Positions 8,646-63,401 of a stretch of 64,000 bases of DNA are shown one piece after another. This stretch comes from Porticoccaceae bacterium (GTDB lineage Bacteria > Pseudomonadota > Gammaproteobacteria > Pseudomonadales > Porticoccaceae), in assembly GCA_002702725.1 (NCBI GenBank), contig PABE01000114.1:35843-99842 (forward strand), written 5' to 3'. Positions within the stretch are counted from its first letter, which is position 1. Each line of letters opens with the position of its first letter. Below the pieces are notes generated by a model. That model was not told the DNA's origin and ran no database searches. It was given only the letters and a program-made list of their open reading frames with translations. A program made the position numbers and the translations under genes.

Positions 8646-8657
8646 TTGGGACATGCT

Positions 8658-22867: not shown

Positions 22868-23745
22868 CGAAAGTCGGCGAAATCGTAAAGACGGCTCCTG
22901 GCCAGCTTGATGAAATCATCGGGCCAGAGGGTAACCGGATCAAACTCGGGCTGCGGAAGCCGCCAAAAGAGTTGCCGGTCACATACGCGCCGTTGGTCGG
23001 GGCTTTGCCTCGCCTGTTGACCTACGATGAGATTAAGGCAAGGTGCGAAAGCGTCGACCGCCGCCCCTCCCGTGATCGATGGGGCCCAGACACGATCAAG
23101 GACCAAGATGGCCGAGGAGCCTGCCAAGGGTATGCGTCTGCCGGCATGGCCGAGCGTGTCCGAGAATCTAGCGGTCAGAAGCGAGTCGTCTTGTCTGGCG
23201 ACTTCTCTTACTCGCTTGCCAATGGCGGCCGAGACCAGGGGTCTGCTTTGTCGCGCGGCTTCATGGCGGCTACCCAGGTCGGCTATGCCCCTGAAGACAC
23301 GCCCGGCCTGAAGCGATGGGAATACCGCAAATCGCACATGCCGCAGGCTGCGTTCGCGGCTGCTAGCCGGTTCAAGGGTATCGACGGATTCTACTGCGAA
23401 ACGCAGCAGGAATTCTTCACGGCTCTTGCCCTCGGCATGATCGGCGTGATCGCCGTACACGTTGCCGGCGCTTTTTCGCAACTCGACAACTACGGGATCA
23501 GTCAAGGCGGCAACGGCGATGGTAACCACGCCGTGTGTGCGGACGACTTGGTCTACGACCGTCGGCTCGGCGGATTCAAGATCGACTCACCAAACAGTTG
23601 GAAGCGGACTTGGGGGGATAACGGACGTTGTTACTACACGTTCGAACGTCACCTTCGCCGCACTATCGAAGTTCACAAGTTCTACGTCTTCCCGATTCTT
23701 ACGCAGGATCCACAAGGCGATAACCCACCTCAGGTGCTCGTATGA
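22864..23745 (+). CDS. papain-family (C1-like) cysteine peptidase; candidate lysis enzyme
   Basis: Three papain-type segments are present: QDGRGACQGYASAG (Cys box), GDGNHAVCADDLVY (His box) and NSWKRTWGDNGRCYY (Asn/Trp box). Confidence 0.65.
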   Translation: MTKVGEIVKTAPGQLDEIIGPEGNRIKLGLRKPPKELPVTYAPLVGALPRLLTYDEIKARCESVDRRPSRDRWGPDTIKDQDGRGACQGYASAGMAERVRESSGQKRVVLSGDFSYSLANGGRDQGSALSRGFMAATQVGYAPEDTPGLKRWEYRKSHMPQAAFAAASRFKGIDGFYCETQQEFFTALALGMIGVIAVHVAGAFSQLDNYGISQGGNGDGNHAVCADDLVYDRRLGGFKIDSPNSWKRTWGDNGRCYYTFERHLRRTIEVHKFYVFPILTQDPQGDNPPQVLV

Positions 23746-26707: not shown

Positions 26708-27148
26708 TTGAGTACCACATCTCACTACGACATCTTGCAGCGTGTGATCACAAAGCTGAAAGCACTCAGCTTATCTCCGGTGTCGTCATCTCAAATATAC
26801 GCCTGTGAATTTCCCTTCGACAGGCATGTGGTTCCTGGAATCGCATGCAGCGAAATAGAGGAACACGAAGGCGCTGGAACAAACGAGAAGGATGACTTCA
26901 TGTACGGAGTCATGCTCACGAGGGTGTTTGGCGGATCCGGCCAGGGCGATTACCACCAGGATCAGTCTGCGTGGAGGCAGAAAGTTCGCAGCCACTTTCA
27001 TCGCCAGCTTCTTGGAAATATCGACAACGAGATCATAACAAAGGTGAGCCCAGGAAGAATCAATCTCACTAAACAGTGGAGAGACTGGGGCATCGACGGT
27101 AACACAATGGAAATCTGGACTTGGGTCAGGGAAGGCCGAGATAGCTAA
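26708..27148 (+). CDS. neck / tail-completion-like protein (weak call)
   Basis: 146 aa. The N-terminal pattern (YDILQRVITKLKAL...) resembles tail-completion proteins. This is a memory-based resemblance only. Confidence 0.3.
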   Translation: MSTTSHYDILQRVITKLKALSLSPVSSSQIYACEFPFDRHVVPGIACSEIEEHEGAGTNEKDDFMYGVMLTRVFGGSGQGDYHQDQSAWRQKVRSHFHRQLLGNIDNEIITKVSPGRINLTKQWRDWGIDGNTMEIWTWVREGRDS

Positions 27149-28098
27149 TGTCAACTTGCATGTCAATCGGATCGGCAGCAAAGCTTGCCGTACAGGGCGG
27201 CGGAACTGCACCAAGAACATTCAACTCCAGCAGCGAGCGGTACGACTTTCTGTATGAAACGCTGACAAAGAAGCAGCGCCGCGTAGGCAATCGCACCATC
27301 AAAGGCGACTTGTCTGACTGGGAAGAGCGAAACGTCGAAGGCGCATCGCTATGCTCTGGGGTAATTGCTTTCAACGCAAGCCCACTGTGGTTTTCCAACT
27401 GGATGACCAGAATCATCGGAACCACAACGAACGGCAACAATGGTGACGGCGATGCGATTTACGAGCCAGGCACATCGCTTCCTTCGTTCGATGTTCTGAT
27501 CGACAAAGAGGCTGACACGTTCCACTTCTACGACTGCATGGTCAATCGTTGCATCATTCGCGGCCAGAATGTCCCAAGCGAAGAAGAGCCAGAAGTCATC
27601 AATGTTGTTGTTCAGTTGATCGCAAAGCAGCGAGTCCTGACCACCTCTTGGCCTGATCCAGAGCCTTCTCTCTCGACGAGTTCCAACGCGCTACCGGACG
27701 TAATGGGCAAATCTGTGCTCACGATGGACAGCACTGAATACGCATACGACAGTTTCGTGCTATCGATCGACCACGGTCTTATTCCGAAGTTCCGGAACAG
27801 CCTGAACATCAGCTGTATTCGTCCTGGGATGCGAAAGGTTCGCCTGCAGACGAACAACCCATTCTTGTCGGCAAGCTTCTCTGCGCTGCACGACACTCTT
27901 GCCTCTCCGATCGGCGGAAGCCTGAAGTTCGAGAGGGGTGATGCTTACACCGAGTTTGCTTTCGGCACCTTGGACAACATGGGCGAAGACCCGAATGTTC
28001 GTGGCAAAACTGAAATTGTCCACGCACTTGACTTCCAGTGCCTGAAGGACGCTAGCGCCGGATCGCCTGAGATCACAGGGACCACCCACCTGGGATAA
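27148..28098 (+). CDS. tube-like structural protein (weak call)
   Basis: 316 aa with a TAATG overlap. The pattern AKLAVQ...FLYETL...GVIAFNASP...MTRIIG resembles ~300-aa phage tail-tube proteins. Not verified. Confidence 0.3.
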   Translation: MSTCMSIGSAAKLAVQGGGTAPRTFNSSSERYDFLYETLTKKQRRVGNRTIKGDLSDWEERNVEGASLCSGVIAFNASPLWFSNWMTRIIGTTTNGNNGDGDAIYEPGTSLPSFDVLIDKEADTFHFYDCMVNRCIIRGQNVPSEEEPEVINVVVQLIAKQRVLTTSWPDPEPSLSTSSNALPDVMGKSVLTMDSTEYAYDSFVLSIDHGLIPKFRNSLNISCIRPGMRKVRLQTNNPFLSASFSALHDTLASPIGGSLKFERGDAYTEFAFGTLDNMGEDPNVRGKTEIVHALDFQCLKDASAGSPEITGTTHLG

Positions 28099-29665: not shown

Positions 29666-31089
29666 CCATCAAGATAACCTACGGCGATGCCAAGATCTGG
29701 AGCGCCGACCTTCTCATCAGTGCTGGCGCTCAACCAAGTCGATTTATCCTTGAAGGTGATATCCAAGGTGATCTCGATGATGTCGCGCCGATTCTCAGAA
29801 TTGACGATGGCGACACAGAGAGGATATTCGCAGACACTAGACTTCTGTCGATTGAGAACCGGCCATGTAGGTGGGGCGACGAGCTTTCATCCTATTACGT
29901 CATTGAAGATAAGAGATGGAAGTGGTGGGACATATTTGCTTCCTGTGACTACAACCGCCTGAAGTGCGACGGAGACAGGTATAACGACGCAACGTGTGGC
30001 GAGATCTTCGGAGATCTGCTGACACTCGCTGGCGAGGCGATCTTTGATGTCGGCAGCGCTAGTGACGCAATCTATCCGGTACTGCACTATGACGAGCAGG
30101 TTCCTGTTGGCAGGATGCTTCAGGACCTCTGTGAGCTGACAAAGCATACCATCGGATTCAAGGAAGATGGCAGCGTTAAGGTTTTTCAGCTAGGCCAGGG
30201 AAAGCTCCCGAATATCTCTGCGATCAAGAGTTTTCGACAATACACCAACCGAACAATCAATGACTTCAAAGTCATATCCAAGCCCACTCTTTTTGAGAGC
30301 CTGATCTCTGTCAACCCAGTTGGGATGGAATCAACTGGCGAGATCGTTGATCTGGATTCCGTCAGCTACAAGCCTGCTGCGGGATGGAGCGGAGAATGGC
30401 CAGGGCAGTTTAGCGGAGTTGCCTCTGCTTCTCAGTGGCTGGCGAACAAAAGCGTTTACCGACTGTTTGAGCCAAGCAGTGTGGAGAACGACCAGACGGC
30501 AGCTGCGTTCCCGCTAGATGGTCTGGAAATACTGGAAAACGGCGATTGCGCATATAACAGTATGAGAGGAGGAGTTTGCATTGACTATGTCATTGGCGAA
30601 TTCTGGCCTGAGTACCACCGAGGGGATGTCGAGACATCTGCAACAGACCACTGGTTTGGCGATGTTTCCGTAAAGGAAAACATCTTTCAGTTCGGCAGGC
30701 CTGTATTCAAGGTTGATGACGGCGCCGTATCTGAGCCAGTGCTGAAGATCAAGGCTTGGCATCGGCAGCGAGATGACGCCAATGGAGACTTCATTTTCGA
30801 GAGCCTTGGAAACGGTCCTGTTCGCGAGGCTTCTTGGGTTCAGCCTGTTGTCATCCACGATGAAGGGACAAATCTGACTGATGTTGGGAATCAGCTGACT
30901 GAATACAGGCGGATCTGCATCCAAGAGTCCAATATCGACACATCGATGGTTGTTTATGACGGGATCCAGAGTGTCGAAGTCAATGGAAATGTAAGGTCAA
31001 TTCGGCACAAGCTCAATCTGACAGCAAGCTCTGGTGGCGCTGACACGGAAGTTTACATAGGCGATGGCTGGGACGGCCTGCAGGTATGA
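29662..31089 (+). CDS. hypothetical large structural protein (475 aa; hub- or fibre-like by size)
   Basis: ATGA overlap. Its Arg codons are mostly AGA/AGG. Confidence 0.5.
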   Translation: MTIKITYGDAKIWSADLLISAGAQPSRFILEGDIQGDLDDVAPILRIDDGDTERIFADTRLLSIENRPCRWGDELSSYYVIEDKRWKWWDIFASCDYNRLKCDGDRYNDATCGEIFGDLLTLAGEAIFDVGSASDAIYPVLHYDEQVPVGRMLQDLCELTKHTIGFKEDGSVKVFQLGQGKLPNISAIKSFRQYTNRTINDFKVISKPTLFESLISVNPVGMESTGEIVDLDSVSYKPAAGWSGEWPGQFSGVASASQWLANKSVYRLFEPSSVENDQTAAAFPLDGLEILENGDCAYNSMRGGVCIDYVIGEFWPEYHRGDVETSATDHWFGDVSVKENIFQFGRPVFKVDDGAVSEPVLKIKAWHRQRDDANGDFIFESLGNGPVREASWVQPVVIHDEGTNLTDVGNQLTEYRRICIQESNIDTSMVVYDGIQSVEVNGNVRSIRHKLNLTASSGGADTEVYIGDGWDGLQV

Positions 31090-31778
31090 CGCGCGGAGTA
31101 TCCGACCCTTTATTCATGGGGTCGCAGTGGCACGACTGTAAAAACGCCAGCGGGTCTAGCATCCCTCCGTACGGTGTAGCCGAAACGGTTGGCATGACGA
31201 CGATCACCGTCGATGGTGTGTCGAAGCCAGCGATATCCGTCCAGGCGCCAACGACAAACAATCCGGAAAAGCTGGTGTTTACTGGTCCGATGGGATGCCC
31301 GGCTGGTGGAACCGGGATTTGCCATGCGGAAGTTATTGGGTATGCAGCGCACTCCGGAACGCTCAGTACAAGCGCCAACTACGGGCTAGATGATGACGGC
31401 CCGCTACTTCAGGAAAAGGTTGGGAATTTCCGGGGGATTGGCGGAACATTCACGTCTGGTGGAAACAGCGTATCGCTCTTCTATCGGACGCCGAACACTG
31501 GCGCCAAGAAGATACTATTCACGATTGTTTCCGCGAGTGGATCGTCTGCAACAGTTCAGGTCAACAAGGCTACATGCAACCTGACGGAGATTGATGGGAT
31601 TGGCGTCAGTTGTTTGCTGACTGTGTACGACGACCTCGGGTGCCTATTGTCAGCTGCGGATTCCGCTGCGTGGGTCGGAAAGAAGGGAACTGCGGTGTTG
31701 ATGCAGTCACTTGACGAGGACTCCTGTGAGCCAACTGGCTCGTGCAGATGGGTCATTGACGCACTGTGCTGTCCATAG
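31086..31778 (+). CDS. hypothetical structural protein with a Cys-rich C-terminus
   Basis: ATGA overlap. The protein ends ...CRWVIDALCCP. Confidence 0.5.
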   Translation: MTRGVSDPLFMGSQWHDCKNASGSSIPPYGVAETVGMTTITVDGVSKPAISVQAPTTNNPEKLVFTGPMGCPAGGTGICHAEVIGYAAHSGTLSTSANYGLDDDGPLLQEKVGNFRGIGGTFTSGGNSVSLFYRTPNTGAKKILFTIVSASGSSATVQVNKATCNLTEIDGIGVSCLLTVYDDLGCLLSAADSAAWVGKKGTAVLMQSLDEDSCEPTGSCRWVIDALCCP

Positions 31779-31787
31779 GAGAGATAT

Positions 31788-32372
31788 ATGTCACTCCTGA
31801 CAATGCTGTGCTGTTGCGACGAATCGAGCAGTTCTTCTTCATCCAGCAGTTCATCAAGTTCGAGCAGTAGTTCGTCGAGTTCTAGCAGTTCGTCCAGCAG
31901 CTCGGAAAGCTCAAGCAGTTCTTCGTCGTCAAGCTCAAGCAGCGATTCATCAAGCAGCAGTTCGTCTTCGTCGAGCAGTTCGTCGTCAAGCTCCAGTAGC
32001 AGTTCGTCGAGCAGTTCGAGTTCATCGAGTTCGAGCAGCTCAAGTAGCTCAAGCAGTGACTCGTCTAGTAGCTCGTCCAGCGATTCGCTCAGCAGCGAGA
32101 GTGCCAGCGAAAGCACAAGCTCTGAATCTGTCTCGTTAAGCGACAGCGTGCCTAGCGAGGAGGATCCTTGCGCCTGCCCAAGCCCTCCTGTTGTTGTGCC
32201 CGGTGGACCACAGCCTCCATGCGGCGATGTGTATTTCGGCCCATGCGTGGCAACGCTTCCAGGCGAAAACTGCGACAGCCTGCAATGTACGTTTGAGTTT
32301 GATGGAACGAGATGGAGATTGATCCTTAACTGCTACGGCGAGAAGGTAGAGGAGATCCCAAGTTGCCCATAA
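31788..32372 (+). CDS. poly-serine repeat protein with a Cys-rich C-terminal domain
   Basis: AGGAGAG lies 7 nt upstream of the ATG. The product is MSLLTMLCCCDE, then a tract of about 125 residues that is mostly Ser with sparse D/E, then a Cys-rich ~60-aa domain. Confidence 0.7.
   Translation: MSLLTMLCCCDESSSSSSSSSSSSSSSSSSSSSSSSSSSESSSSSSSSSSSSDSSSSSSSSSSSSSSSSSSSSSSSSSSSSSSSSSSSSSDSSSSSSSDSLSSESASESTSSESVSLSDSVPSEEDPCACPSPPVVVPGGPQPPCGDVYFGPCVATLPGENCDSLQCTFEFDGTRWRLILNCYGEKVEEIPSCP
31824..32160 (+). repeat. low-complexity serine-coding tract
   Basis: Near-continuous Ser codons using all six codons (AGC, AGT, TCG, TCA, TCT, TCC) in an irregular order. Confidence 0.9.
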
Positions 32373-33580
32373 GCACCCAATGTGAGCATCTTAGTGACGG
32401 AAAATGCGAGATCGCATCAAAGCACGCTGGAATGCCGATCGTGGTAAACAGCAGTGGATGCGAGGCGTGCCTTGCTAATCCGAATCCAAAGCAGATGAAC
32501 CACCCCATGGCAAGCATGTGCGTTGTTGCCATGATCAAAGCCGATAGGTTCAGGACGCCTGAGTATCGCGAGATATCAAAGCACATCCAGTCGCCCGAGG
32601 AAAGGTGCGAGAACACTGGAACCTGCAAGGAAAATGCATTCGGCCCAGGAACTGAACTTAAAGAGATCGTTCCCAAGTTCTTCGAGCGAGGCAAGTGTTC
32701 GTGCAAGAGCTACGCTGCCAAGATGGATCGGTGGGGCGTAGACGAGTGCGAGCAGCGATTTGAAGAGATCGTCGATCACTTAGTCAAGCAGGCAAGCGGA
32801 TGGGCGGTGCCAGCCTTTGCTTCTCGCGTTGTCGCGCGGCGATGGCTGCGCATGGCAATCGATAATGCAAAGTCTGACTGGCCTTTTGTGTGGGCATACT
32901 ACGCAAAAGAGGCAAAGGGAGATGAGCTTCGGTACTCGATTCGATCGCTTCTCAAATGGAAGCCTGACGCGAGAGTGATCTTAATTGGCGACAAACCTGA
33001 CTGGTATGGCGGAGAGTTTTACGAGAAGCCAAGGATCGGACCAACGAGCTTTCAGGCATTCAAGGACTGCTACTCGAAGCTCCAGATGGCAGCAACGATC
33101 GTAGACAAGTTCGTCTGGATGATGGACGACATATACTGGGTCAGCGACTTTAAGATGTATCACGCCACTAGCCCGAAGTATGTTCGGCATGTTACACAAG
33201 AGCAGTTCTACAACTGGAAGCCAAAGAATGCTTGGGCGAAGACTCGCGCCAACGCCTATTCATACCTACTTGAAAACAGTCTTCCGACGTACGACTTTGC
33301 TGGTCACCTTCCGCAGCCAATCCGATCCAAGACATTCTTGGAAATGGAAGACGAACTTGGGTTGCTGGAAGAGTATCGAAACTGGGAGTGCATTTACTTC
33401 AACAAGTATTACTCTCAGCACGCCATACCTTACGCAAGCAAGTATACAAGAGTTACCAAGGAGCCGAAAAGAATCTCTCCGAAAGGTGTTCTGCTCAATC
33501 ACACGAGTTCGACGTACGGCGGGATGGTGCGCGAGTATCTTGAGAGTGCATTCCCAGAAAAGTGCGCGGTGGAGAAATGA
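32363..33580 (+). CDS. Stealth-like hexose-1-phosphate transferase with a Cys-rich N-terminal region
   Basis: GDELRYSIRSL, RVILIGDKPDWY and FVWMMDDIYWV match my recollection of Stealth conserved region 2 (ELRYSLRS ... IVTD.Q.P.WL ... F.Y.NDD.F). The start is uncertain (TTG 32363 or ATG 32432). Confidence 0.5.
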   Translation: MPISTQCEHLSDGKCEIASKHAGMPIVVNSSGCEACLANPNPKQMNHPMASMCVVAMIKADRFRTPEYREISKHIQSPEERCENTGTCKENAFGPGTELKEIVPKFFERGKCSCKSYAAKMDRWGVDECEQRFEEIVDHLVKQASGWAVPAFASRVVARRWLRMAIDNAKSDWPFVWAYYAKEAKGDELRYSIRSLLKWKPDARVILIGDKPDWYGGEFYEKPRIGPTSFQAFKDCYSKLQMAATIVDKFVWMMDDIYWVSDFKMYHATSPKYVRHVTQEQFYNWKPKNAWAKTRANAYSYLLENSLPTYDFAGHLPQPIRSKTFLEMEDELGLLEEYRNWECIYFNKYYSQHAIPYASKYTRVTKEPKRISPKGVLLNHTSSTYGGMVREYLESAFPEKCAVEK

Positions 33581-34212
33581 CATACGATGCCACAGTGATT
33601 ATCCCGTGGAGGGAGTGCCCATCGAGGCGACCCGGATTTGACTGGGTCCTTCGGTACTATCGCCATCGTTTTGACAAGGTGATTGTCAGCGAGCAAAGCG
33701 ACGGAAAGTTCAACAAGTCAGCTGCAATCAACAGCGCGATCAAGCACTGCAATCCAAAGCCAGAGGACGTTTTTGTAATAGCTGACGCCGACTGTTTTAT
33801 TGCTGACTGGGCAATGGAGGCTGGGATCAGCAAGGCGAAAGTGTCAAACAAGCTCGTCAGGCCGCACAAGAGATATCTTCGCACGAGCAAAGAACAAGCA
33901 GAATTTATCCTTCAGCAAGACCCAACCAAAAAGATATTCTTTCACTGGTTCCACAAGAAATTCAACCGCTTCAAAGCAAAGGGCGGTGTGTGGATCATTC
34001 GATTTGAAGTCTTCGATAGAACTGGCTGGATGGACGAGGGGTACGTTGGATGGGGTGGAGAGGATAGCGATTTCATTGCGAGATGCGGATCCGTTGTGAT
34101 GAATGGACCGCTCTACCACATCTGGCATGAGCCAGCGCCAGACAAGAGTTTTTCAAGTCCTGGATGCAAGCGTTTTCACGAGAAGTTTCGCCGCAGGAAA
34201 AAAAGACGATGA
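33577..34212 (+). CDS. GT-A fold glycosyltransferase (GT2 / beta-4-GalT C-terminal type)
   Basis: Motifs TVIIPW, FNKSAAINSAI, DxD-type VIADADC, GWGGEDSDF and LYHIWH. ATGA overlap at 33577. Confidence 0.7.
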   Translation: MTYDATVIIPWRECPSRRPGFDWVLRYYRHRFDKVIVSEQSDGKFNKSAAINSAIKHCNPKPEDVFVIADADCFIADWAMEAGISKAKVSNKLVRPHKRYLRTSKEQAEFILQQDPTKKIFFHWFHKKFNRFKAKGGVWIIRFEVFDRTGWMDEGYVGWGGEDSDFIARCGSVVMNGPLYHIWHEPAPDKSFSSPGCKRFHEKFRRRKKRR

Positions 34213-35027
34213 AGCGAGCGATCTTCTTTGAAGTGAAGAGATGCTACAGAATTTACATGTGGCCTATCTTCCGCGAGATGGAAAGGCGTGGCTACAAGTG
34301 CTATTTCGCTGGTCCTAAAACTAGACGATCGAAGTGGTACTGCGACTACGGTTTTGTGTGGAATGGGCATGATCACCGAGTGTCTAAGTTCAACAGATAC
34401 CTCAAAGAATCTGGCATTCCACATTCGTTCATTGAGTCTGGGTATTTCTCGCAACTGAATCACTCGTTTGTCAGCAGAGCTGGGTCAATCGGACGGTTTC
34501 TCTTCCTTGACGAAAAGATTGAAGATCCAACTGGAGAAGACATGGATCTGGTACAGCGCAAGAGCAGTTCATACGTCCCAGGATACACATACAAATACCT
34601 TGGCCATATTGCTGGGATGCTTCAACTGCAAAAGGACACATCGATCAAGACGCAGAGCGACTTCAAGGACTCGCAAGAATTCGTTGACAGGGTTGAGTCA
34701 GATCACCCGAATGACAATGTGATATTCAGGCCACACCCTTACGAACGAAACGTGAGACTGCGAACCAGTAGCCCATTGAGTAGAAGTAGAACTATGTGGG
34801 ATCACGTTCTTCCAGCACGGAAGGTTGTCGGAATCAATAGCACTTCGCTTTACGAGTCGGTTCTCGCGGGTAAAGAAGTCGTGGCTTACGGAGATTGTGC
34901 TTTAAGCAGGAATCCTGACAACCACATTGGCGTCGTTGCTGAAATCATCAAGAGGGAAATCCACGTCGATGCGGACAGGTGTGGGGATCAGCTCGAAAGA
35001 AGCCTTGGAGACGAAGCACCACGATGA
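34209..35027 (+). CDS. capsule-synthesis-like (KpsC/KpsS- or TagF-like) glycosyl/phosphotransferase
   Basis: FRPHPYE ... KVVGINSTSLYESVLAGKEVVAYGDC resembles the HP ... NSTvGfEAl..GkpV..G signature. ATGA overlap at 34209. Confidence 0.45.
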   Translation: MKRAIFFEVKRCYRIYMWPIFREMERRGYKCYFAGPKTRRSKWYCDYGFVWNGHDHRVSKFNRYLKESGIPHSFIESGYFSQLNHSFVSRAGSIGRFLFLDEKIEDPTGEDMDLVQRKSSSYVPGYTYKYLGHIAGMLQLQKDTSIKTQSDFKDSQEFVDRVESDHPNDNVIFRPHPYERNVRLRTSSPLSRSRTMWDHVLPARKVVGINSTSLYESVLAGKEVVAYGDCALSRNPDNHIGVVAEIIKREIHVDADRCGDQLERSLGDEAPR

Positions 35028-35578
35028 GGCAAAAGATTACGGAGATATTCAGGCTTGCGAGGCTTTGTGGATCGCTTGGGTGCGAGAGCTACCTTGAGGT
35101 CGGATGTGCTGACGGAGAGACTTTTCTTTCGATCGGAAGCACGATGAAGAAAGCCGTGGCTGTAGACATGCCCGGAATGAAATGGGGGACCGTCAAAACT
35201 GGCCCAGTTCTGGCGAGAAGAGTTTCAGACATGCGAACAAAACTCGGTGTCGACTCGCACCTCATAATTGGCGATTCTTCTGACGACAGTGTTGTTGACA
35301 GAGCGATGAAGCTTGGACCGTATGATCTTGTTTTCATAGATGGTGACCACACATACGATGGAGTTAAGCGTGACTACGAAAACTATGGCCCTATGGCAAC
35401 AAAAGCCATCGCGTTTCATGACATCATTGGAAACGGCATGAAGTTTCGTGACGGAAGCAAGGTTGAGGTTCCTATCCTATGGAAAGAGATATCTTCGTCT
35501 CTAAAGACAGTCGAGTTCTCGGAAACTTGGGGCCAGATGCCAATGGGGATCGGCGTGATCCTTGTCGGCGAGAGATAA
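35024..35578 (+). CDS. class I SAM-dependent methyltransferase (Methyltransf_24-like)
   Basis: Motifs YLEVGCADGETF and VFIDGDHTYDGVKRDYENY. ATGA overlap at 35024. Confidence 0.65.
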   Translation: MRQKITEIFRLARLCGSLGCESYLEVGCADGETFLSIGSTMKKAVAVDMPGMKWGTVKTGPVLARRVSDMRTKLGVDSHLIIGDSSDDSVVDRAMKLGPYDLVFIDGDHTYDGVKRDYENYGPMATKAIAFHDIIGNGMKFRDGSKVEVPILWKEISSSLKTVEFSETWGQMPMGIGVILVGER

Positions 35579-35910
35579 AGTCCTGGGGAATAGCAACCAG
35601 CGTCTTCACGAACAAAGACACTCACGTTTCGGTTGCTGAGATTCTGTCTGGAGGGAAGTCCAGCGTTCACAGGCACATCAAGTTCGACAACATCCTGTGC
35701 GTAATAAGTGGGCAGATTCGAGTCGATACCGACAAAGACAGGTACTTTCTTTCGCGCGGCGAGTCAGTGAGGATTCCATCTGGATTGCTCCATTCGTTTT
35801 TTGCAGAGCAGGATTCGGTGGTGGCAGAAGTCTATGTTCCTCCTGGGACCATGGGCGGCGCAGAGTTCAAAGATATACACAGGGTCATTGGCCCTTCAGA
35901 AGGAAACTAG
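35479..35910 (+). CDS. cupin-domain protein
   Basis: Motifs GGKSSVHRHIKFDN and GESVRIPSGLLHSF (G-x5-P-x-G-x2-H). The start is uncertain: an ATG at 35479 overlaps the methyltransferase by 100 nt. Confidence 0.55.
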   Translation: MERDIFVSKDSRVLGNLGPDANGDRRDPCRREIKSWGIATSVFTNKDTHVSVAEILSGGKSSVHRHIKFDNILCVISGQIRVDTDKDRYFLSRGESVRIPSGLLHSFFAEQDSVVAEVYVPPGTMGGAEFKDIHRVIGPSEGN

Positions 35911-35921
35911 GGAGAAGTGAA

Positions 35922-37994
35922 ATGGCATACGGTGGTAACAGCTCTGCTGCAGGGTACGGATACAGTACTGCTGGAAACAAATCAATTGGCGATGCTGCCA
36001 GGAAATACATGAGCAAGCAAACTCCAGCGCAATCGCGCTATCAATCCAGCCAGTACGATTACAGTGGCGTTCTTGGTCAAAACAGTCCGATCAATCGAGA
36101 TCCAAACTCCGCAGCAAGGGCAAGGTCACTGCCTGGAAGCCAGTACAGCGCAGCTGCAGAGTCTGCTTATCAATCCAGCCAGCCTCAAATCAGCAGTGGA
36201 GTGCCAAACTCGCAGTACGGCGAGGCGGCAAGGCAACTTGCTCAGCAGCAACAAGCATTGCAGCGAGATCAACAAGCGCTGAATAGCTTTCGCGCGGACG
36301 CAAACGATATCCACCAGCAATCCCTGTCGAGTGCTGCTGCGCGACGTGCGTCAAATCCTGCTTTGCAAACCTACCAGAACATCCAGGACTCAATGCAGAA
36401 ATCTGGCCAAGCTGCGATGGGTGACTACGCAGGGCAGACGAATGCGCTTGCAAACTCGATGGCAAGTCGTGGCGCTGCTGCCGAAGCTTACGGCAACGCT
36501 CGATATCAGGCTGCGCAAAATCCAGTGACGTACAAGGGTGTTACTGTCAACCCTGCTGCAATCGCTGCAAATAAGACGATGAGCCCTGGCCGTGCTGCGA
36601 TGCTTGCGGCAAACGGGTACGAGGTATCTCCCGAGGGTGTTGTGCAGCAACAGGGACCAAAGAAGATCGTTGGCCAGAACATCGGCGGGACCGCTGCGGA
36701 AGTTGCCCAGCAAATCTACGGAGGCACTGGCGCTGATCTTGCCGCAGAGGCTCGTCGGATCGGCCAAGCTCGTTATCGCTACGGGATTCCTGAGGATGGT
36801 GGAGGATCTACTCCACAGACTCGGGAGGATCTGATCAATGCTCGCAATGATTTGACTATGCAGGAAAAACAGGATTACATTTCCAAGAGTCAACAGCGAG
36901 ACAATCCTTACAGTCCCGAACGGATGGCTCGCATGGAGCGATACAACAATCGCCAACAACAGAAGGCGACTGCTGGTCAGATCGCACAACAGCAGGCGAG
37001 AAACGCACAGCTCGGTCAACTTGCTCAGGCCGCTGCGATGGGAAGTGCTCCTGCGGCAGAAGCGTTGGGGCAGATTGCGAGGAGCCAAGCGTACGCACAG
37101 CAGGGCATGATGCAGAACCAACTTGGCTATGCTCAGATTGCGTCCGATCAAGCTGCGCGGCAAGCAGAGCAGCAGTGGAGAGAAAAGCAGTCTGAAAGAC
37201 AGAACCGACTGGACATGGCGAATGCTGCAATTCAACAAGCCGAAGTCGAGAGGGCTCGTGCGAGAGATGCGAGGGAATCCAAAATTGCAGACGCAAAGCT
37301 AGCGCAGGCCGAGTTCGAGTTGGACCAGGCAAAGAGGGAGGCTGGCAATCAGGCTCCTGGGTTTAACGATCTAGTGAACCAAGCGCTGACGCAGTACCCA
37401 GAAGCAACTCCGGCTGACGCAAGACAGATGGCGATGGTTGCCCAAGGAACCGACTCGATTAACCGTGCTGTTGAGGCAGGTGATCGCGGAGCTGCTTTGT
37501 TATCGACCGTTCCGGCGAGCGCTGAATATGGCCAAGCGATGGAGCCGATGGCTGCTGTCGATGACTACCTAAGCCGAGTATCCCAGTCGATTGGACTCGG
37601 CAATGAAGGCATTGGCAGTGTATCACCAGAGATGCTGATGAATGGATTCTCGGAGAACGGATTGAGCGCTGCTGATGCTCGCAAGTTTGCAGAAAAGCAA
37701 CTGAAGGGGATTGGCGCGAATAACACCATGAATGCGTCTCCTGGTGTTCCGACAATCGAAGAGCTTCACTCAGTTGGCCAAGTGACAGACGACACCTTCG
37801 ATCGCATCCAAAGATTGAATGCCGCAAGGAAGGCGATTGGCATGCCGCTGCTAACTCTCAGTGGAAAGGCGCTGCCGAAAGAAATGGGGCGAGCAAAGAC
37901 TTATGAAAGCGGATATGCAAGCGTTCCAGGGCCAGTTGGCGCTATTTCTGAGTTCGCTATGACCCTTCAGGATCTGCTCGAAGGCAATAAATAG
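35922..37994 (+). CDS. Q/A-rich 690-aa protein (internal-virion or ejection-protein-like by composition and position)
   Basis: The ATG at 35922 is preceded by GGGAGAAG. The upstream part of track ORF 35697-37994 overlaps the cupin gene. The product is extremely Q/A/S-rich and coiled-coil-like. Confidence 0.6.
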   Translation: MAYGGNSSAAGYGYSTAGNKSIGDAARKYMSKQTPAQSRYQSSQYDYSGVLGQNSPINRDPNSAARARSLPGSQYSAAAESAYQSSQPQISSGVPNSQYGEAARQLAQQQQALQRDQQALNSFRADANDIHQQSLSSAAARRASNPALQTYQNIQDSMQKSGQAAMGDYAGQTNALANSMASRGAAAEAYGNARYQAAQNPVTYKGVTVNPAAIAANKTMSPGRAAMLAANGYEVSPEGVVQQQGPKKIVGQNIGGTAAEVAQQIYGGTGADLAAEARRIGQARYRYGIPEDGGGSTPQTREDLINARNDLTMQEKQDYISKSQQRDNPYSPERMARMERYNNRQQQKATAGQIAQQQARNAQLGQLAQAAAMGSAPAAEALGQIARSQAYAQQGMMQNQLGYAQIASDQAARQAEQQWREKQSERQNRLDMANAAIQQAEVERARARDARESKIADAKLAQAEFELDQAKREAGNQAPGFNDLVNQALTQYPEATPADARQMAMVAQGTDSINRAVEAGDRGAALLSTVPASAEYGQAMEPMAAVDDYLSRVSQSIGLGNEGIGSVSPEMLMNGFSENGLSAADARKFAEKQLKGIGANNTMNASPGVPTIEELHSVGQVTDDTFDRIQRLNAARKAIGMPLLTLSGKALPKEMGRAKTYESGYASVPGPVGAISEFAMTLQDLLEGNK

Positions 37995-38167: not shown

Positions 38168-41100
38168 ATGGTTGATCTTCTCCGAGCTGCTAGGCTAGGC
38201 ACTACGCCAGCCATCCAGGACAACGAAAAAAAGCAGCAGCGACTAACTCCGATCAGGGCGGCTACTAACCGCGCTGAGCCAGATCAGTCTATCTTATCAA
38301 GTCTTGCTAGTACAGGCTTGAGTGGACTGGCGAAAGTCGGGAACTTTTTGGACCTTCCTGGTTCGGTCGTGCGCGATGTCAGCACCTGGCTCCCAGGCGG
38401 AATCGAAGCGCAGAATCCAGTCGATCAGTTTCTTTCCCCATTCACTTCAGAGAACCGTGTCTCCGGCGAAGACATGCTCCAGTCAGCAGGTCTTGCTGGC
38501 GAGAACACTTGGGGCGGATTGGCTGGTGGAATCGCAACCGAAATCGCGCTTGACCCTTTGACTTATTTGAGTTTTGGCGCGTCGGCTGTCGGAAAAGCTG
38601 GAACAGCCGCTGGCAAGGCTGGCCTCACTAAGAACGCCAAGTCGGTCGCGAACGAACTTGCTGGCCGAACTCTAGGCAAGGAGTCAGGCAAAAGGCTTGG
38701 TGCTACCAGCGCGAGGCAAACGCTAACGCCGCGCAATCTGATTGACGCTGCTGCGGATCCAGCGGAAGCGATGAAGCGATTCAAGGTGGCTGGTGGCACT
38801 GATGCGATGCTCGATGAGAAGCTCGGTGGAGTTGCGAAGTTTTCTGTTCCATTCTTGTCGAAGCGATACGGAGATACTGTCCCCGCCCTGCGCGAACGAG
38901 TCCTGGGGACTACCGACCTGACGCCTTCGCAGCTCGGCGCTAAGCCTTGGATGAAGGGTGGCGATGGCCCAAGCGGTCCCGATGCAGGTAGTGCCGCAAA
39001 GCCAAAGTCACCTCTGGATCCGAATGCTGACACTGGCCTGAAGAACCCGACGCCTGAAGAGTTCTCGGCTATCTCTCCGAACCACGCTCGGTTCAACCAA
39101 GAACTAGATGGTCTTCAACAGAGTGGTATTCTTGACGACGCTGACTCTGAGATCCTTCGCGGAATCTTTAGCCAATCAGACCTTGGCGGATTCGATCGAG
39201 TTTACTTCCGTCCAGTCAAAGAGATCTCGCCTGAGGCTACTCCCGAGATCGTGTCTGCATACGGCGCGAATGTTCCAGAAATTGGCGGTGCTGCAACAAA
39301 GACTCCCGATGGCGGATTTGATATCCAGCTTTCTCAAAAGGCGCTGGCTGATGGAAACTACGTCGACACCGGAATTGACACTCTCGTTCATGAGATCGGC
39401 CATGCTTTTTTGGAGACAACGAAGAAGCCACAGGGCGAGGCTGGCGTTGATGTTGTTTCTGAGTTCGACAATCTGATCAAAGACGGGACTCTCGGTCGAT
39501 ACTTCTCCGACAACTACGGCCCTGAGAAGGCAGCATACTTCGGACAAAATCCGCACGAGGCATTCGCTCAACTGTTCGCCGACTCGGTTATCAAGCGCAA
39601 GGGCCAAGAGATGCCCAAGCCAATCGAGTCATTCTTGGGCAAGGTGCGCAAGTTTGTTTCAGACATGCTCTCAAAGGTCCTTGGAAACAAGCAGCTGAGC
39701 GGTGAGGCAAGGCTGCGAACCGATGCGATGATTGACTTGGTCGGAGGATTTATCGGTCCAGATCAATACAAGTCGATTATCGGAAAGGCTGACTCTGCAT
39801 CGTCCAAACTGGATTTCTACAAGCCAGCTACGAGAAAGATGCCTGGCATCGAGCCTGATGCCACTGGGATGTTCAGTCAAGTCGCCAGATCTCTTGACGC
39901 CATATTCCGCGAGTCGAGTTCGCTTCCTGCTGACCAGATGCTTGCTAGGCTGAGAAAAATGCCTGGAGTCAAAGAGGAGGAGATTGCTGACCTTGGTCTT
40001 GACAAGCTCAGTGGAAAGCGACTCAGTCGAAATGACATCACTGACCACCTCAGCAAAAACATGCTCACCATGGAGGAGGCGATCAATACTGGAGACCGCG
40101 CTGGTTTCAGTGATCTTGCAGTTCCTGGTGGCGATGATGGAACTTACCGAGAACTTATCCTCAAGGCCAATGCAGGTGGAAAGCGAATTGAGGGCGGCGC
40201 CGATACTCACTGGATGGGCGATGATTCGATTGCGCATATCCGGCTTGACGATGTTTCGCTTGCGAACGGAGAGAAGATTCTGCGAGTCAATGAGATCCAG
40301 AGCGATTGGATCCAGGGGCTGCGCAAGTTCGGAACGAAAACCGAAGATTTGCAAAGCGAAGCGAAGTCCATCAAGAAGGAAATGTCTGGCAACGCAGTTG
40401 AGCTTTTTCTCACAAGGCAGCAGATCAAACAGCTTGGAGAAAACGCACCCCCAGAGTTGCTTGCAAAAGAACAGTCATTGACTCAGAGTGTCGAGCAAGC
40501 AAGCTCTCGCATAACTCAGATCGGAAAGATGCCAGCCGATGCCCCGATGAAGAAGTCGTGGGACAGCATGGCCATCAAAAAGATCTTCGACTATGCAGTC
40601 GCAAATGGGTATGACGGAGTTTCATTCGTCGACGGCCAGGATATCGCAAAGGTTGTTCAAGGTCCTGCTGATGCACTAAGTGGCTTCTATAACAAGGTTC
40701 AAACTCTCGCCGGAAAAATTGCAAAGAAATACGGAAGCGGAAAGGTATCGAACGAGAAGCTGGCCGGTCAATTCATCAACGACAGCGAGGAATTGCGCCG
40801 TGGTGTGACGTTCCCTGTCACGGACGAGATGCGAAACACGATTGGCTCAGGTGGACAGCCGAGATACAAACCAGCGGAAAAAGTGGCCGAAGCCGCCAGC
40901 GCTGCTAAACAAGGAGCAACTAAGGCGGCATCGTACGCAAACGACATGGCAAGGAGAGCGTTGTCGTCAGTCGGTGAGCTTGCGCTAGATAAAGATCTTG
41001 GTGCTGCTGTCGGCGCCACAATGGACACTGTTGGAGGATTCTTCAAAAACTCTGCGCCAGTGAGATACCTTCGCGCCACCATCACCCCAGAGATGCTTGG

Positions 41101-43966
41101 CGCTTCAACCGAGCTTGGGCAGGAGATCGGCCAAAAGCGATTCGAGGCTTTGCAAGAGACGAAATATGAGATGCGGAAGCGAATGTTTCCGATCGCAAAG
41201 CAATTCCTCCAGAGCGAAGCACTTGACTACGAAAAGCTCGTCGAAAAGCTTGGCGATGCGAAGAAGGCAAGAGGCGTTCTTAACACGAATTACCTGGAGG
41301 TGACTCGCTATCTTGAAGGTGGCACGGAACTTCTGGCTAAGGGCCAATCTCCAAAACTACCCGACGAACTGAAGCCGCTCATTCCTGCGATGGATGACAT
41401 TCGCACTGCGCTGGATGAGATCAGGCAGACCGAAATCAACAGCGGCCTCAAGTCTCCTCAGCTGGACGACATGTTCATCGACTACTTGCCTCGCCAGTTA
41501 CAAGGGTTCCCGAACGACAAGTCGACTGGTTCTGGGAACTTAGGCAAGTTGTTTGAATTCGGAACTCCTTACCAGAAGCAACGCAAAGAATTTTTGCGAA
41601 ATCTTCCAGGCGGAACATCCTCGATCAACAAACTGTCTCTTGATCCGCTTGTTTCGGGAATCGCCCATAGCTACCCTGGGTCTAAGATACCGGACGATGT
41701 CCTTCAGGAAGCAAAGAAGTACCTGCGTGAATCATACGGCGGTGGTCAAGCAGGAAATAGAGAGCGAGATAGTATCTTCCATCTTGACATGGATGACAAC
41801 AACAACGACTTGGATAAGCTTGCTCGGTGGATCACTGGTCTAGATCCAAGACATGCTGAACTCCAGGTTCCTGTATTCAAGCTTGATCCTGTTCAAAACG
41901 TGATGAACCGAATCGAATCTGGGCTTGCAGCGTCTTCGGCTGCTGATTTTACCACTGCGATGATTGCAAAAGCGGCTACCGAAGCTGGCGAAAATATATC
42001 AGATCCGAACTTGTACGATATCCTGGTGGATAAGTTTGCAGTCGACGGCGCGGACGGCGACAAGATCAAGGAAATCGTCATCGGAAAGATGGGAGAAACC
42101 TTTCAGACTAAGCGTTTCGCGATGCAAGATGCTGCTGACAAGCTTGCGAGATCTCAGGTCGATGAATTGATTGCGAAATCGAATGTTACTGAAGATGGGA
42201 TCTTGTTTGACGAGCCAGTCGTTGGTTCGATCGGTACAAGCAAGGCTAAGTTCCTCGGTGTCAAGGGTGATCAAGTTATCTATCAGTCTTCTGGCAAGAA
42301 AGGCTATGCTCCGCTTGACTCCATCGGTGGAAAAACTGTATCAGAAAACGATGTTCTCAAACAGTTTTCTATTCCTCAGCAACTGAGTGATGCGACATTC
42401 AGGTATCTCAAGGGGTTTACTTCGCCTGAGGCACCCGATGCTATTCGCAAAGCACTGGGTCAAATCACTAGCCTATATAAGAGTCAGTTGACGATTCCTT
42501 GGCCAGCGTTCCATGTGCGCAACCTGCTGAGTGGTCAGTATGCAAACTGGCTGAACAACGCAACTGACCCTCGATATTCCGGTCCTCGCGCGATGGTCGA
42601 GCCGATTCGCGATGCGGACAGAGTTTTCAGAGGAGAATCCATACCTGACATCCTGAGCATTCCAGCGATTAAGGAGCTGGGGATAACCGATGAGTCTCAG
42701 GCTATGGAGTGGCTGCGCCAGGAGATCTTTGCAAACAAGCTTGTCGACTTTGGCCAAGGGATTTCAGCAGAGGCAGCTGCGAACAACTTGTCAGATATTC
42801 GCTCTCAGGTTGTCGGCCAAGTTCCGAAGAAGCGACGAGACATACTCGCTAAGTTGCCTCCGAGGCCGATTGGCGCATCGAAAGCGCAATCGTTCAATCC
42901 GTTGGCCGGAGCAGGAATCCTTGGTGCGACAGAGGATACATTTGGTCCGTATCGCTGGGGTCGGCAGGTTGGTGCATACACCGAGGGAATGAACCGCATT
43001 GCTCCTTTCATAGCATTTCTTCGGCAGGGGATGGACTCGCAAGAAGCTATGCGTCGAGTTCTTGCTGCACAGTTCGACTACAGCAAGATGACTCCGGCAG
43101 ATCGTGACATCAAATTGTTGATTCCGTTTTATGGATTTTCGCGAAACGTCCTGCCGTTCGTCGTCGGCAATCTTGTTCGCGATCCAGGCGGCGCGTTAGG
43201 GATGACAGTTCGCGCCACAAGAAACGCATCGGCAAGTCAGCCGTTGCCAGACTATCTTGCTGGCCAAACTGCAATCCCGTTTGGTACGCGAGGTGATGTG
43301 TCGGAGGGTAATTCGTCGTTCCTGACAGGATTTGGATTGCCGCACGAAGACACTCTTGGTCTGGCTGGTCTAGTAACAGGCGATCCAGCAGATGGCTTCA
43401 GGAATATTTTGTCTCGGATGAATCCGCTTGCCAAATCGCCGCTTGAATTGGCGTTTGGTGAGTCTACTTTCTTTGATGCCCCTGGAGGTGGGAGAGCACT
43501 GAAAGATCTTGATCCATTGGTTGGCCGTATTGGATCGAATATCAAAGACTTGGCGACTGGGTCTGATACCATGCGTGCTCAACCAGTCATGGGATCTCCA
43601 TTACTAGAGCATGCGTTAGCTAACAGTCCGTTCAGCCGCGTCTTGACGACAGCGAGAACTATTACCGATCCAAGAAAGTGGAAGAACCCACTGAAACTTG
43701 GCCTCAATCTAGGCACAGGGATGAGAGTGACCGACGTAAGCGAAAGCTCATGGGACGCAACAGTCAGCGACTTGATCTCAGAGAGAATGAGAGAGCTAGG
43801 CAGTCGCGATTTTGTCAGGAGCTATTTTCCGCAATATGCGCAAGAAGCAATGACAGACGAACAGCTTTCAGAAGCAAACTCACTGGAAGAGTTGATGAAC
43901 TGGTTAGCGAATAGAGCTAAACAGCGCAAGGCCGATCGAGAGGCTAAAGCCAATGCGCAAAACTAA
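38168..43966 (+). CDS. giant 1932-aa protein with a zincin HExxH motif (polyvalent/ejection-protein-like)
   Basis: Uninterrupted 5.8-kb ORF. VHEIGHAF lies at 39386-39409 (HEIGH at 39389-39403), with a downstream NPHEAFAQLF at about 39548-39577. It is the last gene of the plus-strand arm. Confidence 0.75.
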   Translation: MVDLLRAARLGTTPAIQDNEKKQQRLTPIRAATNRAEPDQSILSSLASTGLSGLAKVGNFLDLPGSVVRDVSTWLPGGIEAQNPVDQFLSPFTSENRVSGEDMLQSAGLAGENTWGGLAGGIATEIALDPLTYLSFGASAVGKAGTAAGKAGLTKNAKSVANELAGRTLGKESGKRLGATSARQTLTPRNLIDAAADPAEAMKRFKVAGGTDAMLDEKLGGVAKFSVPFLSKRYGDTVPALRERVLGTTDLTPSQLGAKPWMKGGDGPSGPDAGSAAKPKSPLDPNADTGLKNPTPEEFSAISPNHARFNQELDGLQQSGILDDADSEILRGIFSQSDLGGFDRVYFRPVKEISPEATPEIVSAYGANVPEIGGAATKTPDGGFDIQLSQKALADGNYVDTGIDTLVHEIGHAFLETTKKPQGEAGVDVVSEFDNLIKDGTLGRYFSDNYGPEKAAYFGQNPHEAFAQLFADSVIKRKGQEMPKPIESFLGKVRKFVSDMLSKVLGNKQLSGEARLRTDAMIDLVGGFIGPDQYKSIIGKADSASSKLDFYKPATRKMPGIEPDATGMFSQVARSLDAIFRESSSLPADQMLARLRKMPGVKEEEIADLGLDKLSGKRLSRNDITDHLSKNMLTMEEAINTGDRAGFSDLAVPGGDDGTYRELILKANAGGKRIEGGADTHWMGDDSIAHIRLDDVSLANGEKILRVNEIQSDWIQGLRKFGTKTEDLQSEAKSIKKEMSGNAVELFLTRQQIKQLGENAPPELLAKEQSLTQSVEQASSRITQIGKMPADAPMKKSWDSMAIKKIFDYAVANGYDGVSFVDGQDIAKVVQGPADALSGFYNKVQTLAGKIAKKYGSGKVSNEKLAGQFINDSEELRRGVTFPVTDEMRNTIGSGGQPRYKPAEKVAEAASAAKQGATKAASYANDMARRALSSVGELALDKDLGAAVGATMDTVGGFFKNSAPVRYLRATITPEMLGASTELGQEIGQKRFEALQETKYEMRKRMFPIAKQFLQSEALDYEKLVEKLGDAKKARGVLNTNYLEVTRYLEGGTELLAKGQSPKLPDELKPLIPAMDDIRTALDEIRQTEINSGLKSPQLDDMFIDYLPRQLQGFPNDKSTGSGNLGKLFEFGTPYQKQRKEFLRNLPGGTSSINKLSLDPLVSGIAHSYPGSKIPDDVLQEAKKYLRESYGGGQAGNRERDSIFHLDMDDNNNDLDKLARWITGLDPRHAELQVPVFKLDPVQNVMNRIESGLAASSAADFTTAMIAKAATEAGENISDPNLYDILVDKFAVDGADGDKIKEIVIGKMGETFQTKRFAMQDAADKLARSQVDELIAKSNVTEDGILFDEPVVGSIGTSKAKFLGVKGDQVIYQSSGKKGYAPLDSIGGKTVSENDVLKQFSIPQQLSDATFRYLKGFTSPEAPDAIRKALGQITSLYKSQLTIPWPAFHVRNLLSGQYANWLNNATDPRYSGPRAMVEPIRDADRVFRGESIPDILSIPAIKELGITDESQAMEWLRQEIFANKLVDFGQGISAEAAANNLSDIRSQVVGQVPKKRRDILAKLPPRPIGASKAQSFNPLAGAGILGATEDTFGPYRWGRQVGAYTEGMNRIAPFIAFLRQGMDSQEAMRRVLAAQFDYSKMTPADRDIKLLIPFYGFSRNVLPFVVGNLVRDPGGALGMTVRATRNASASQPLPDYLAGQTAIPFGTRGDVSEGNSSFLTGFGLPHEDTLGLAGLVTGDPADGFRNILSRMNPLAKSPLELAFGESTFFDAPGGGRALKDLDPLVGRIGSNIKDLATGSDTMRAQPVMGSPLLEHALANSPFSRVLTTARTITDPRKWKNPLKLGLNLGTGMRVTDVSESSWDATVSDLISERMRELGSRDFVRSYFPQYAQEAMTDEQLSEANSLEELMNWLANRAKQRKADREAKANAQN

Positions 43967-63386: not shown

Positions 63387-63401
63387 GTTGCTTCCATTGA
63401 G

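Follow-up and report, generated by a model that had tools for sequence, protein, structure and literature searches.

Does a tailed phage encode, side by side, a serine-rich virion protein and the enzyme that glycosylates it? This question is raised by a cassette of six genes within a 64,000-nucleotide stretch of contig PABE01000114.1 (the window), in which a gene for a protein with a long serine (Ser) tract is followed by five genes, here called B to F, the first of which resembles the Stealth family of hexose-1-phosphate transferases (Table 1). An earlier note on this DNA had described the Ser-tract gene with its ribosome-binding site, the five genes behind it, their overlaps and a set of enzyme motifs, all of which are present, and had read them as a substrate-plus-enzymes cassette. 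Across related phages the conserved unit is the pair of Ser-tract and Stealth-like genes, with tailoring genes that vary, and we consider it on balance probable, from sequence comparison and structural models, that the Stealth-like enzyme and a tailoring set phosphoglycosylate the Ser tract of a virion fibre in the cytoplasm. The gene system is well supported as conserved; the chemistry, approached by computation only, is unproven.

Conservation of the Ser-tract and Stealth-like gene pair

The product of the Ser-tract gene runs from MSLLTMLCCCDE through the Ser tract into a Cys-rich C-terminal part of about 68 residues, 8 of which are Cys. Ser makes up 97 of the 125 residues of the tract and 83 of those in its first 86 positions. 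The gene draws on all six Ser codons (AGC 33, TCG 22, AGT 20, TCA 13, TCT 8, TCC 4), in proportions similar to those of the neighbouring genes, and tandem repeats are weak, indicating that the tract is selected at the amino-acid level and ruling out a slipped trinucleotide repeat as its origin. A 186-aa antisense open reading frame (ORF) rich in Leu, Glu and Asp was also rejected as a gene, being merely the complement of the Ser codons.

Gene B starts at a TTG that has its own AGGAG ahead of it and overlaps the stop codon of the Ser-tract gene, ATGA overlaps mark the starts of C, D and E (33577, 34209 and 35024), and F overlaps E. These overlaps show that the cassette is translationally coupled, and neither a promoter-like nor a terminator-like site was found on the plus strand between 30040 and 36852. 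The public gene model of B (382 aa) begins 23 codons too late (window 32363-32431), since homologues conserve the 23 upstream residues (C-x-H-x-x-D-G-x-C-E-I, 4-Cys module) and the TTG is preceded by AGGAG.

Conservation of this neighbourhood, a check proposed in the earlier note, was examined through a profile-based scan of IMG/VR, from which the best 80 of the first 600 candidate (pattern-matching) stretches were examined together with 7 loci from GTDB genomes, five of them from Planctomycetota; these loci are numbered with the prefix L. Relatives of B were present in 494 of the 600 stretches. Two IMG/VR contigs with B homologues of 45% and 39% identity each encode a 279-aa poly-Ser protein directly upstream, its tract flanked by CCC or CTCC on the N-terminal side and by a Cys-rich module on the C-terminal side. 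At all loci with a full-length homologue (L001, L002, L003, L007 and L085) a poly-Ser ORF ends 6-31 bp upstream of the enzyme gene, and an equivalent also lies directly upstream in L088. At about 40 further loci, where the enzyme is about 30% identical, the upstream ORF begins M-[LF]-[LIV]-G-C-[CG]-C-[HQ]-C, continues with a tract that is shorter and rich in Ser, Pro and Glu and then with a domain containing Cys, and abuts or overlaps the enzyme gene.

The enzymes of exactly those loci that carry a CxCxC plus Ser-tract ORF have a Cys-rich N-terminal extension with the pattern C...C...CxxC, while shorter Stealth-like phage enzymes occur without it. A Ser-tract gene (CxCxC and Ser-rich) is directly upstream in 47 of 49 loci whose enzyme has the extension, compared with 2 of 36 loci whose enzyme lacks it (Fisher p = 6e-19, not corrected for phylogeny). 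The pairing holds at enzyme identities down to 24-30%, with the two genes adjacent, co-oriented and usually overlapping. Homologous cassettes thus do co-occur with a Ser-rich gene, and the N-terminal Cys-rich extension of B probably recognises the substrate.

Nearly all equivalents of the Ser-tract protein carry a short Cys motif ahead of the tract (CCC, CxCC or M-L-L-G-C-C-H-C), usually followed by an acidic residue (in the window and in the upstream ORFs of L001-L047, for example L012 8994-9749). The motif may bind metal, form a disulfide junction or serve as a tag for recognition. The C-terminal motifs are common to the close clade and are two in number, DP-C-x-C...PG...F-x-G-[EQ] and C-x-[YF]-E-[WY]-x-G-x-x-W; their order is the same in the window, L002, L003 and L007, and by eye it seems to be reversed in L001, L085 and L088, which alignment did not resolve.

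The idea of a cassette therefore holds for the pair, but the remaining enzymes are not constantly linked to it. Homologues of C were found in five other loci (L001, L002, L081, L082 and L088), in L081 and L088 as part of a fusion with the Stealth enzyme, whereas homologues of D and E were detected in L001 alone (1e-55 for E), whose cassette also holds the only other cupin found. Downstream genes, inventoried in a minority of loci, otherwise include Glf, an FkbM methyltransferase, a fusion of glycosyltransferase family 8 (GT8) with a methyltransferase, which in L088 is a Methyltransf_24 domain of the E type, and weak sulfotransferase-like and rhamnosyltransferase-like matches. In L012, the one short-tract locus examined in this respect, the Stealth-like gene is followed by a weak rhamnosyltransferase-like match and a methyltransferase. 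The tailoring set of L002 (12398-15943) encodes a UDP-galactopyranose mutase, a DUF3431 protein, a phosphoribosyltransferase-like protein and an FkbM methyltransferase, a gene content that would imply a fibre of this type whose glycans contain galactofuranose.

The L088 locus is a prophage in the genome of an isolate, Rhodopirellula halodulae (GCA_020966775.1, contig JAJKFV010000007), where the gene order is a 238-aa protein, a 524-aa poly-Ser ORF, a fusion of the Stealth and GT-A domains and the fusion of GT8 and methyltransferase. The poly-Ser ORF (8423-9997) has no gene on record, the gene list skipping from 8421 to 10001, and low-complexity fibre genes like this one are probably under-annotated.

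Families and catalytic residues of the cassette enzymes

Residues 1-172 of B form a 4-Cys (zinc-ribbon-like) and helical extension and residues 173-405 the catalytic domain. The earlier assignment of B to the Stealth family by its CR2-like motif is borne out by family profiles and by fold and not by Pfam significance for the single sequence, which matches Stealth_CR2 with an E-value of 0.073 (13.7 bits, below the cut-off of 39.4), so that the assignment needs family profiles and structure. The protein database held 89 homologues of B. A profile of 39 of them retrieved from the PDB the catalytic domain of the eukaryotic GlcNAc-1-phosphotransferase GNPTAB (7s6n, E 3.3e-10) and CpsY of M. tuberculosis (8j2n, 1.7e-4), and 18 of the 39 relatives match Stealth_CR2 (PF11380) individually. 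In B itself the CR2 signature [ND]ELRYS[IL]RS reads GDELRYSIRS. The AlphaFold2 (AF2) model of B has a predicted local distance difference test (pLDDT) score of 89.9, and in a Foldseek comparison with the PDB its top 11 matches (E 1.6e-8 to 4e-5) are all chains of CpsY or GNPTAB, with GT-A enzymes of families GT6 and GT8 ranking after them.

The catalytic residues are intact: D255, D256 and H315 of B are invariant in 39 sequences and align with D407, D408 and H956 of GNPTAB (the NDD and HMP positions). In GNPTAB the two Asp bind metal and ribose and the His is the general base, and these residues are strictly conserved in Stealth proteins (PMC9388126). The outer conserved regions of B are, judged from sequence, atypical. 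At the position of CR1 (IDVVYTF-like), B has PFVWAYY directly ahead of CR2 (family consensus FVWxY), and Pfam CR1 had no match in the B family (39 relatives); CR4, with its tetrapeptide CLND/CIND, gave a weak match in 2 of the 39, and the sole CR4-like element in B is LLNH followed by FP..S..E, aligned with the C-terminus of GNPTAB. On profiles and model together, B is a Stealth-fold, Stealth-family enzyme that is predicted to transfer sugar-1-phosphate.

For C as a GT-A enzyme, E as Methyltransf_24 and F as Cupin_2, Pfam significance was reached, as had been anticipated. C matches Glyco_transf_7C (9.3e-8, 32.1 bits, above the cut-off of 23) and PHROG 1721, 'galactosyl transferase' (2.7e-22), resembles weakly, among PDB entries, beta4GalT7, ppGalNAcT and chondroitin synthase, and carries its DxD motif as the DAD of VIADADC. 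F matches Cupin_2 (2.7e-9) and MannoseP_isomer (6.1e-6) in Pfam and, weakly, the GMP_PMI C-terminal region in NCBIfam, its likeness to mannose-6-phosphate isomerase being weak.

Gene D had been described as KpsC/KpsS- or TagF-like, and the first of these held. Alone, D falls just under the Capsule_synth (PF05159) cut-off of 20 with 18 bits, and a single-sequence search of a word-indexed database yielded one match, so that an exhaustive search was needed, which found 585 homologues. A profile of 50 of these matches WbbB (5fa0, E 7.5e-15) and KpsC (6mgd, 3e-11), and 46 of the 50 relatives match Capsule_synth. E76, Q139...D143 and H176-P177 of D are invariant in 50 sequences and align with Glu158, Gln228/Asp232 and His265 of WbbB. 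In this class Glu158 is the base, Gln228/Asp232 form the QXXXD nucleophile motif and His265 belongs to the HP motif, all absolutely conserved (PMC10148158, PMC9587256). D is thus predicted to be a KpsC/KpsS/WbbB-type retaining transferase of beta-linked 3-deoxy-D-manno-octulosonate (Kdo), related to GT99 (WbbB) and GT107 (KpsC). The TagF-like alternative was rejected, as neither D nor its family had a Glyphos_transf or TagF match in Pfam, NCBIfam or the PDB.

Neither a membrane segment nor a signal peptide was found in any cassette protein. The Ser-tract protein has no hydrophobic segment, and its N-terminus is not hydrophobic (maximum hydropathy 0.45). The suggestion that the modified protein is a secreted decoy therefore falls.

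Place of the Ser tract in the virion and its possible modification

Directly upstream of the Ser-tract gene lies the gene for up230. Its ALCC terminus recurs in all seven up230 homologues. In fold, its AF2 model (pLDDT 77) weakly resembles (E about 1e-3) decoration proteins of phage capsids, the base of the phi29 head fibre, DUF2190 and Mtd-N/tail-fibre N-terminal domains. These matches fit a fibre base and do not decide between head and tail placement; up230 is the likely partner of the Ser-tract protein, as its base or anchor.

In L004, L054 and probably L082, the upstream virion-type protein, the Ser tract and the distal domain form one polypeptide, and in L004 the upstream part bears the C-terminal motif of the upstream protein of L002. 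Because the tract is fused between a virion-type protein and a distal domain in these relatives, it appears from sequence to act as a linker or stalk from the virion-bound domain to the distal module. Where the two are separate proteins, the upstream one has Cys at its end (ALCCP in the window family, AIQAPC elsewhere) and the Ser-tract protein starts with CxCxC, which suggests a Cys-mediated junction, metal or disulfide, between the two. In L001, L012 and L088 the Ser-tract gene follows the tape measure gene and one to three structural genes and is the last gene before the enzymes.

In the window, up230 shares its frame with the Ser-tract gene, from which TAG and three codons separate it; in L002 (8501-9136 and 9137-9976) the corresponding genes are likewise in frame, with a stop codon alone between them. 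Read-through in these two loci would recreate the fusion found in L004 and L054. Programmed stop-codon read-through was nevertheless rejected as a conserved feature, since the upstream gene and the Ser-tract gene are not in frame in L001 or L088. A lanthipeptide-like Ser/Cys chemistry was also entertained, but nothing speaks for it.

In the reaction that we propose, the 194-aa protein would be a component of a virion surface fibre, joined through its N-terminal Cys cluster to the preceding beta-rich virion protein, with the tract as its stalk and the Cys-rich module at the distal end. Late in infection and in the cytoplasm, B, probably with its Cys-rich N-terminal extension as the substrate-recognition module, would move sugar-1-phosphate from a nucleotide sugar to Ser hydroxyls, yielding Ser-O-phosphate-sugar and nucleoside monophosphate. 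The GT-A enzyme, the beta-Kdo-type transferase, the methyltransferase and the cupin would then lengthen and tailor the glycan. The outcome would be a dense anionic brush or stalk, mucin- or teichoic-acid-like, that may stiffen an otherwise disordered stalk and protect it from proteases, mediate adhesion to the host or to particles, or serve in masking. A more specific proposal, which we hold tentatively and at somewhat less than even confidence, is that phages, chiefly those of Planctomycetota, phosphoglycosylate protein by means of a Stealth enzyme with a zinc-ribbon-like docking domain that loads the CxCxC-tagged Ser tract of a virion fibre with sugar-1-phosphates, followed by Kdo, hexose, galactofuranose or methyl tailoring.

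Several points weigh against phosphoglycosylation of the tract. The co-occurrence statistic ignores shared ancestry, and the structural placement of the fibre depends on fold matches that are weak (E about 1e-3) and on PHROG-negative neighbours. We know of no Stealth enzyme shown to act on protein Ser. A Stealth enzyme together with a KpsC/KpsS-type beta-Kdo transferase is the set that builds Kdo-linked hexose-phosphate capsules in group 2 assembly, of the meningococcal serogroup A/X type, so that the acceptor may be a glycan. An integrase-like gene follows the cassette in L001, a position typical of genes for lysogenic conversion, and the shorter Stealth-like genes of other phages sit with nucleotide-sugar genes and no Ser-tract neighbour. 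The Stealth enzymes characterised so far all use sugar hydroxyls as acceptors, on capsule polymers or on N-glycan mannose (PMC9388126, PMC1285062).

Given the capsule-type enzyme set, the integrase-like gene of L001, the distant short enzymes and tailoring genes that vary as they do in O-antigen loci, the cassette might serve lysogenic conversion or host-surface remodelling. The enzymes would then alter an envelope glycan of the host, either a Kdo-linked hexose-phosphate capsule-like polymer or lipopolysaccharide, and would lie beside a fibre gene only because accessory genes are commonly inserted where the structural operon ends. We regard this as unlikely: the pair stays adjacent at 24-30% identity while everything downstream changes, and the extra N-terminal domain of the enzyme clade tracks the Ser-tract gene. 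In addition, the cassette of the window lies inside the plus-strand late block, between structural-block genes and not at a prophage end, and transport, flippase and other membrane components, as well as transmembrane segments, are missing from it.

The virion may also be glycosylated in another way, with the Stealth enzyme acting on a sugar that another transferase has first placed on the protein through an ordinary O-glycosidic link, so that the phosphodiester would be internal to the glycan, or with a different virion part, such as the C-terminal module or the capsid, as acceptor. The sugar hydroxyl acceptors of characterised Stealth enzymes are in keeping with the first form, and the window and its closest relatives carry a GT-A enzyme able to initiate. 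For the second form there is the precedent of mycobacteriophages, which glycosylate capsid and tail-tube proteins. However, the limited spread of gene C and the small enzyme set of L012 leave the Stealth-like enzyme as the only one consistently linked to the Ser tract, and it is the tract, not the C-terminal domain, that is conserved beside the Stealth-like gene. Both forms taken together, we consider such a route improbable.

That the tract is an unmodified flexible linker, its position beside B carrying no substrate-enzyme meaning, is very unlikely, for although poly-Ser linkers occur unmodified in bacterial proteins, among them the carbohydrate-active enzymes of Cellvibrionales, the order to which the Porticoccaceae bin of the window record belongs, and although the tract behaves as an inter-domain linker in the fusion proteins, this would leave the near-obligate pairing with one Stealth-like clade and the translational coupling unexplained, and the relatives come overwhelmingly from Planctomycetota, not Cellvibrionales.

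Genomic setting, significance and comparison with known systems

The window is a tailed-phage genome or prophage, with a late block on the plus strand from the terminase onward and a minus-strand block that encodes DNA-processing functions (Table 1). As regards strand and operon, the earlier claim that the cassette belongs to the virion module is correct. The tail-tube-like match is the sole one and lies about 8 kb downstream of the tape-measure-like gene, an unusual order, and the roughly 10 ORFs between the two have no family match. PHROG, Pfam and NCBIfam were uninformative for the flanking structural proteins (up230 and the 475-aa, 690-aa and 1932-aa proteins, and the neighbours in L001, L002 and L012), except for this borderline match. 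The 690-aa protein just behind the cassette may be a tape-measure-like or ejection protein. A structural-block protein (22864-23745, plus strand) weakly matches the papain-like Peptidase_C1 family, and close to the window end (63401-63473, minus strand) lies a gene for tRNA-Arg(TCT).

Table 1. Features of the window
Feature	Position	Strand	Remarks
Late block	window start to about 44 kb	+	terminase onward
Terminase	4376-6412	+	late block
Portal	6844-8295	+	late block
Prohead protease	8646-10163	+	late block
Major capsid	10216-11853	+	late block
Tape-measure-like protein	16588-18786	+	late block
Tail-tube match	27148-28098	+	late block; borderline
up230	31086-31778	+	230-aa all-beta virion protein ending ...WVIDALCCP; directly upstream of Ser-tract gene
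Ser-tract protein	31788-32372	+	194 aa; AGGAGAG 4 nt before ATG
N-terminal Cys cluster CCC	31809-31817	+	in Ser-tract protein
Ser tract	about 31824-32160	+	in Ser-tract protein
Cys-rich C-terminal module	about 32164-32369	+	in Ser-tract protein
Gene B	32363-33580	+	405 aa; Stealth-like hexose-1-phosphate transferase candidate
Gene C	33577-34212	+	GT-A glycosyltransferase (GT2/GT7-like, DAD motif); ATGA overlap with B
Gene D	34209-35027	+	predicted retaining beta-Kdo-transferase-like (KpsC/KpsS/WbbB type); ATGA overlap
Gene E	35024-35578	+	class I S-adenosylmethionine methyltransferase (Methyltransf_24); Pfam 7.9e-10, above cut-off; ATGA overlap
Gene F	35479-35910	+	small cupin, sugar isomerase-like; overlaps E; start codon uncertain
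690-aa Ala/Gln-rich protein	35922-37994	+	no family match
1932-aa protein	38168-43966	+	zinc-metalloprotease-like HEIGH motif; no match in Pfam, PHROG or NCBIfam
Helicases, 5'-3' exonuclease, DNA methylase		-	minus-strand block

Positions 31000-37000 showed no DNA similarity to any of 50,697 GenBank phage records. The window proteins are recorded from a metagenome-assembled genome that bears the label Porticoccaceae (Gammaproteobacteria). Nearly all genomic relatives of the cassette come from Planctomycetota (L081-L085 and L088, from Pirellulales, Planctomycetaceae, Rhodopirellula and Laterigemmans). The host assignment of the contig is doubtful, and there are also identical copies in marine (Tara) metagenome assemblies (L089-L091).

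If phosphoglycosylation of the tract is correct, it would be the first Ser phosphoglycosylation outside eukaryotes, bringing phages and the bacterial cytoplasm into a process otherwise known from a few protists, and Stealth enzymes would for the first time have a protein as acceptor. It would also be a new route by which a phage builds and diversifies a surface fibre, with a glycopolymer stalk in place of a folded protein shaft, and an acceptor tag with a soluble transferase could serve glyco-engineering. The pair is widespread, at least 47 of the examined loci carrying it, and the version in the cultured isolate Rhodopirellula halodulae makes the idea directly testable.

In agreement with the earlier note, whose author knew of no phage system pairing poly-Ser with a Stealth enzyme, searches of the literature turned up no account of a phage Stealth or Ser-tract system. 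The phage enzyme resembles the Stealth family (the meningococcal capsule polymerases CsaB/CsxA, CpsY, GNPTAB) in fold, in the CR2/CR3 signature and in the active site of Asp-Asp and His. It differs in its compressed CR1-CR2 region, in having no canonical CLND/CIND tetrapeptide, in the novel N-terminal 4-Cys and helical extension, in falling below Pfam cut-offs as a single sequence, and in being encoded by a phage beside a Ser-tract protein, with protein Ser rather than a glycan as the presumed acceptor.

In protists, GlcNAc-alpha-1-P-Ser and Fuc-beta-1-P-Ser occur in Dictyostelium and Man-1-P-Ser proteophosphoglycans in Leishmania. The likeness to the phage case lies in Ser-rich acceptor tracts and in sugar-1-phosphate on Ser, which for the phage would follow from its genes; unlike the predicted soluble, cytoplasmic phage enzymes, the protist process is eukaryotic and belongs to the secretory pathway. 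Stealth proteins have been proposed as the enzymes that place phosphodiester-linked sugars on Ser in Dictyostelium and Leishmania, where the enzyme was unidentified as of 2005 (PMC1285062), and a compact two-gene model could therefore help there.

Group 2 capsule assembly (a beta-Kdo linker made by KpsS/KpsC and then a polymerase, which in meningococcal serogroups A and X is of the Stealth type) likewise brings a Stealth enzyme and a retaining beta-Kdo glycosyltransferase together. Unlike it, the phage cassette has no KpsMTED export genes and no lipid-acceptor context, its Stealth gene is paired with a protein gene, and D was detected in one related locus only (L001).

Virus-encoded glycosylation of virions, as in the O-glycosylation of mycobacteriophage capsid and tail-tube proteins and in giant-virus fibrils, also places viral transferases beside structural genes and modifies proteins of the particle surface. 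These systems differ in using ordinary GT-A/GT-B transfer onto short C-terminal segments or fibrils, and to our knowledge none of them pairs a poly-Ser tract with a phosphosugar transferase.

The serine-rich repeat adhesins of Gram-positive bacteria also have a Ser-rich substrate encoded beside a core initiating enzyme (GtfA/GtfB) and variable tailoring glycosyltransferases, with glycosylation in the cytoplasm ahead of assembly or export. Unlike them, the phage system has no signal peptide, LPXTG motif, accessory Sec components (SecA2/Y2) or GT4-type GtfA/B in the block of the window; its initiating enzyme is of the Stealth type and its product, as proposed, is part of a virion. By analogy, the phage system would thus work like the serine-rich repeat adhesin systems of Gram-positive bacteria while not being a member of them.

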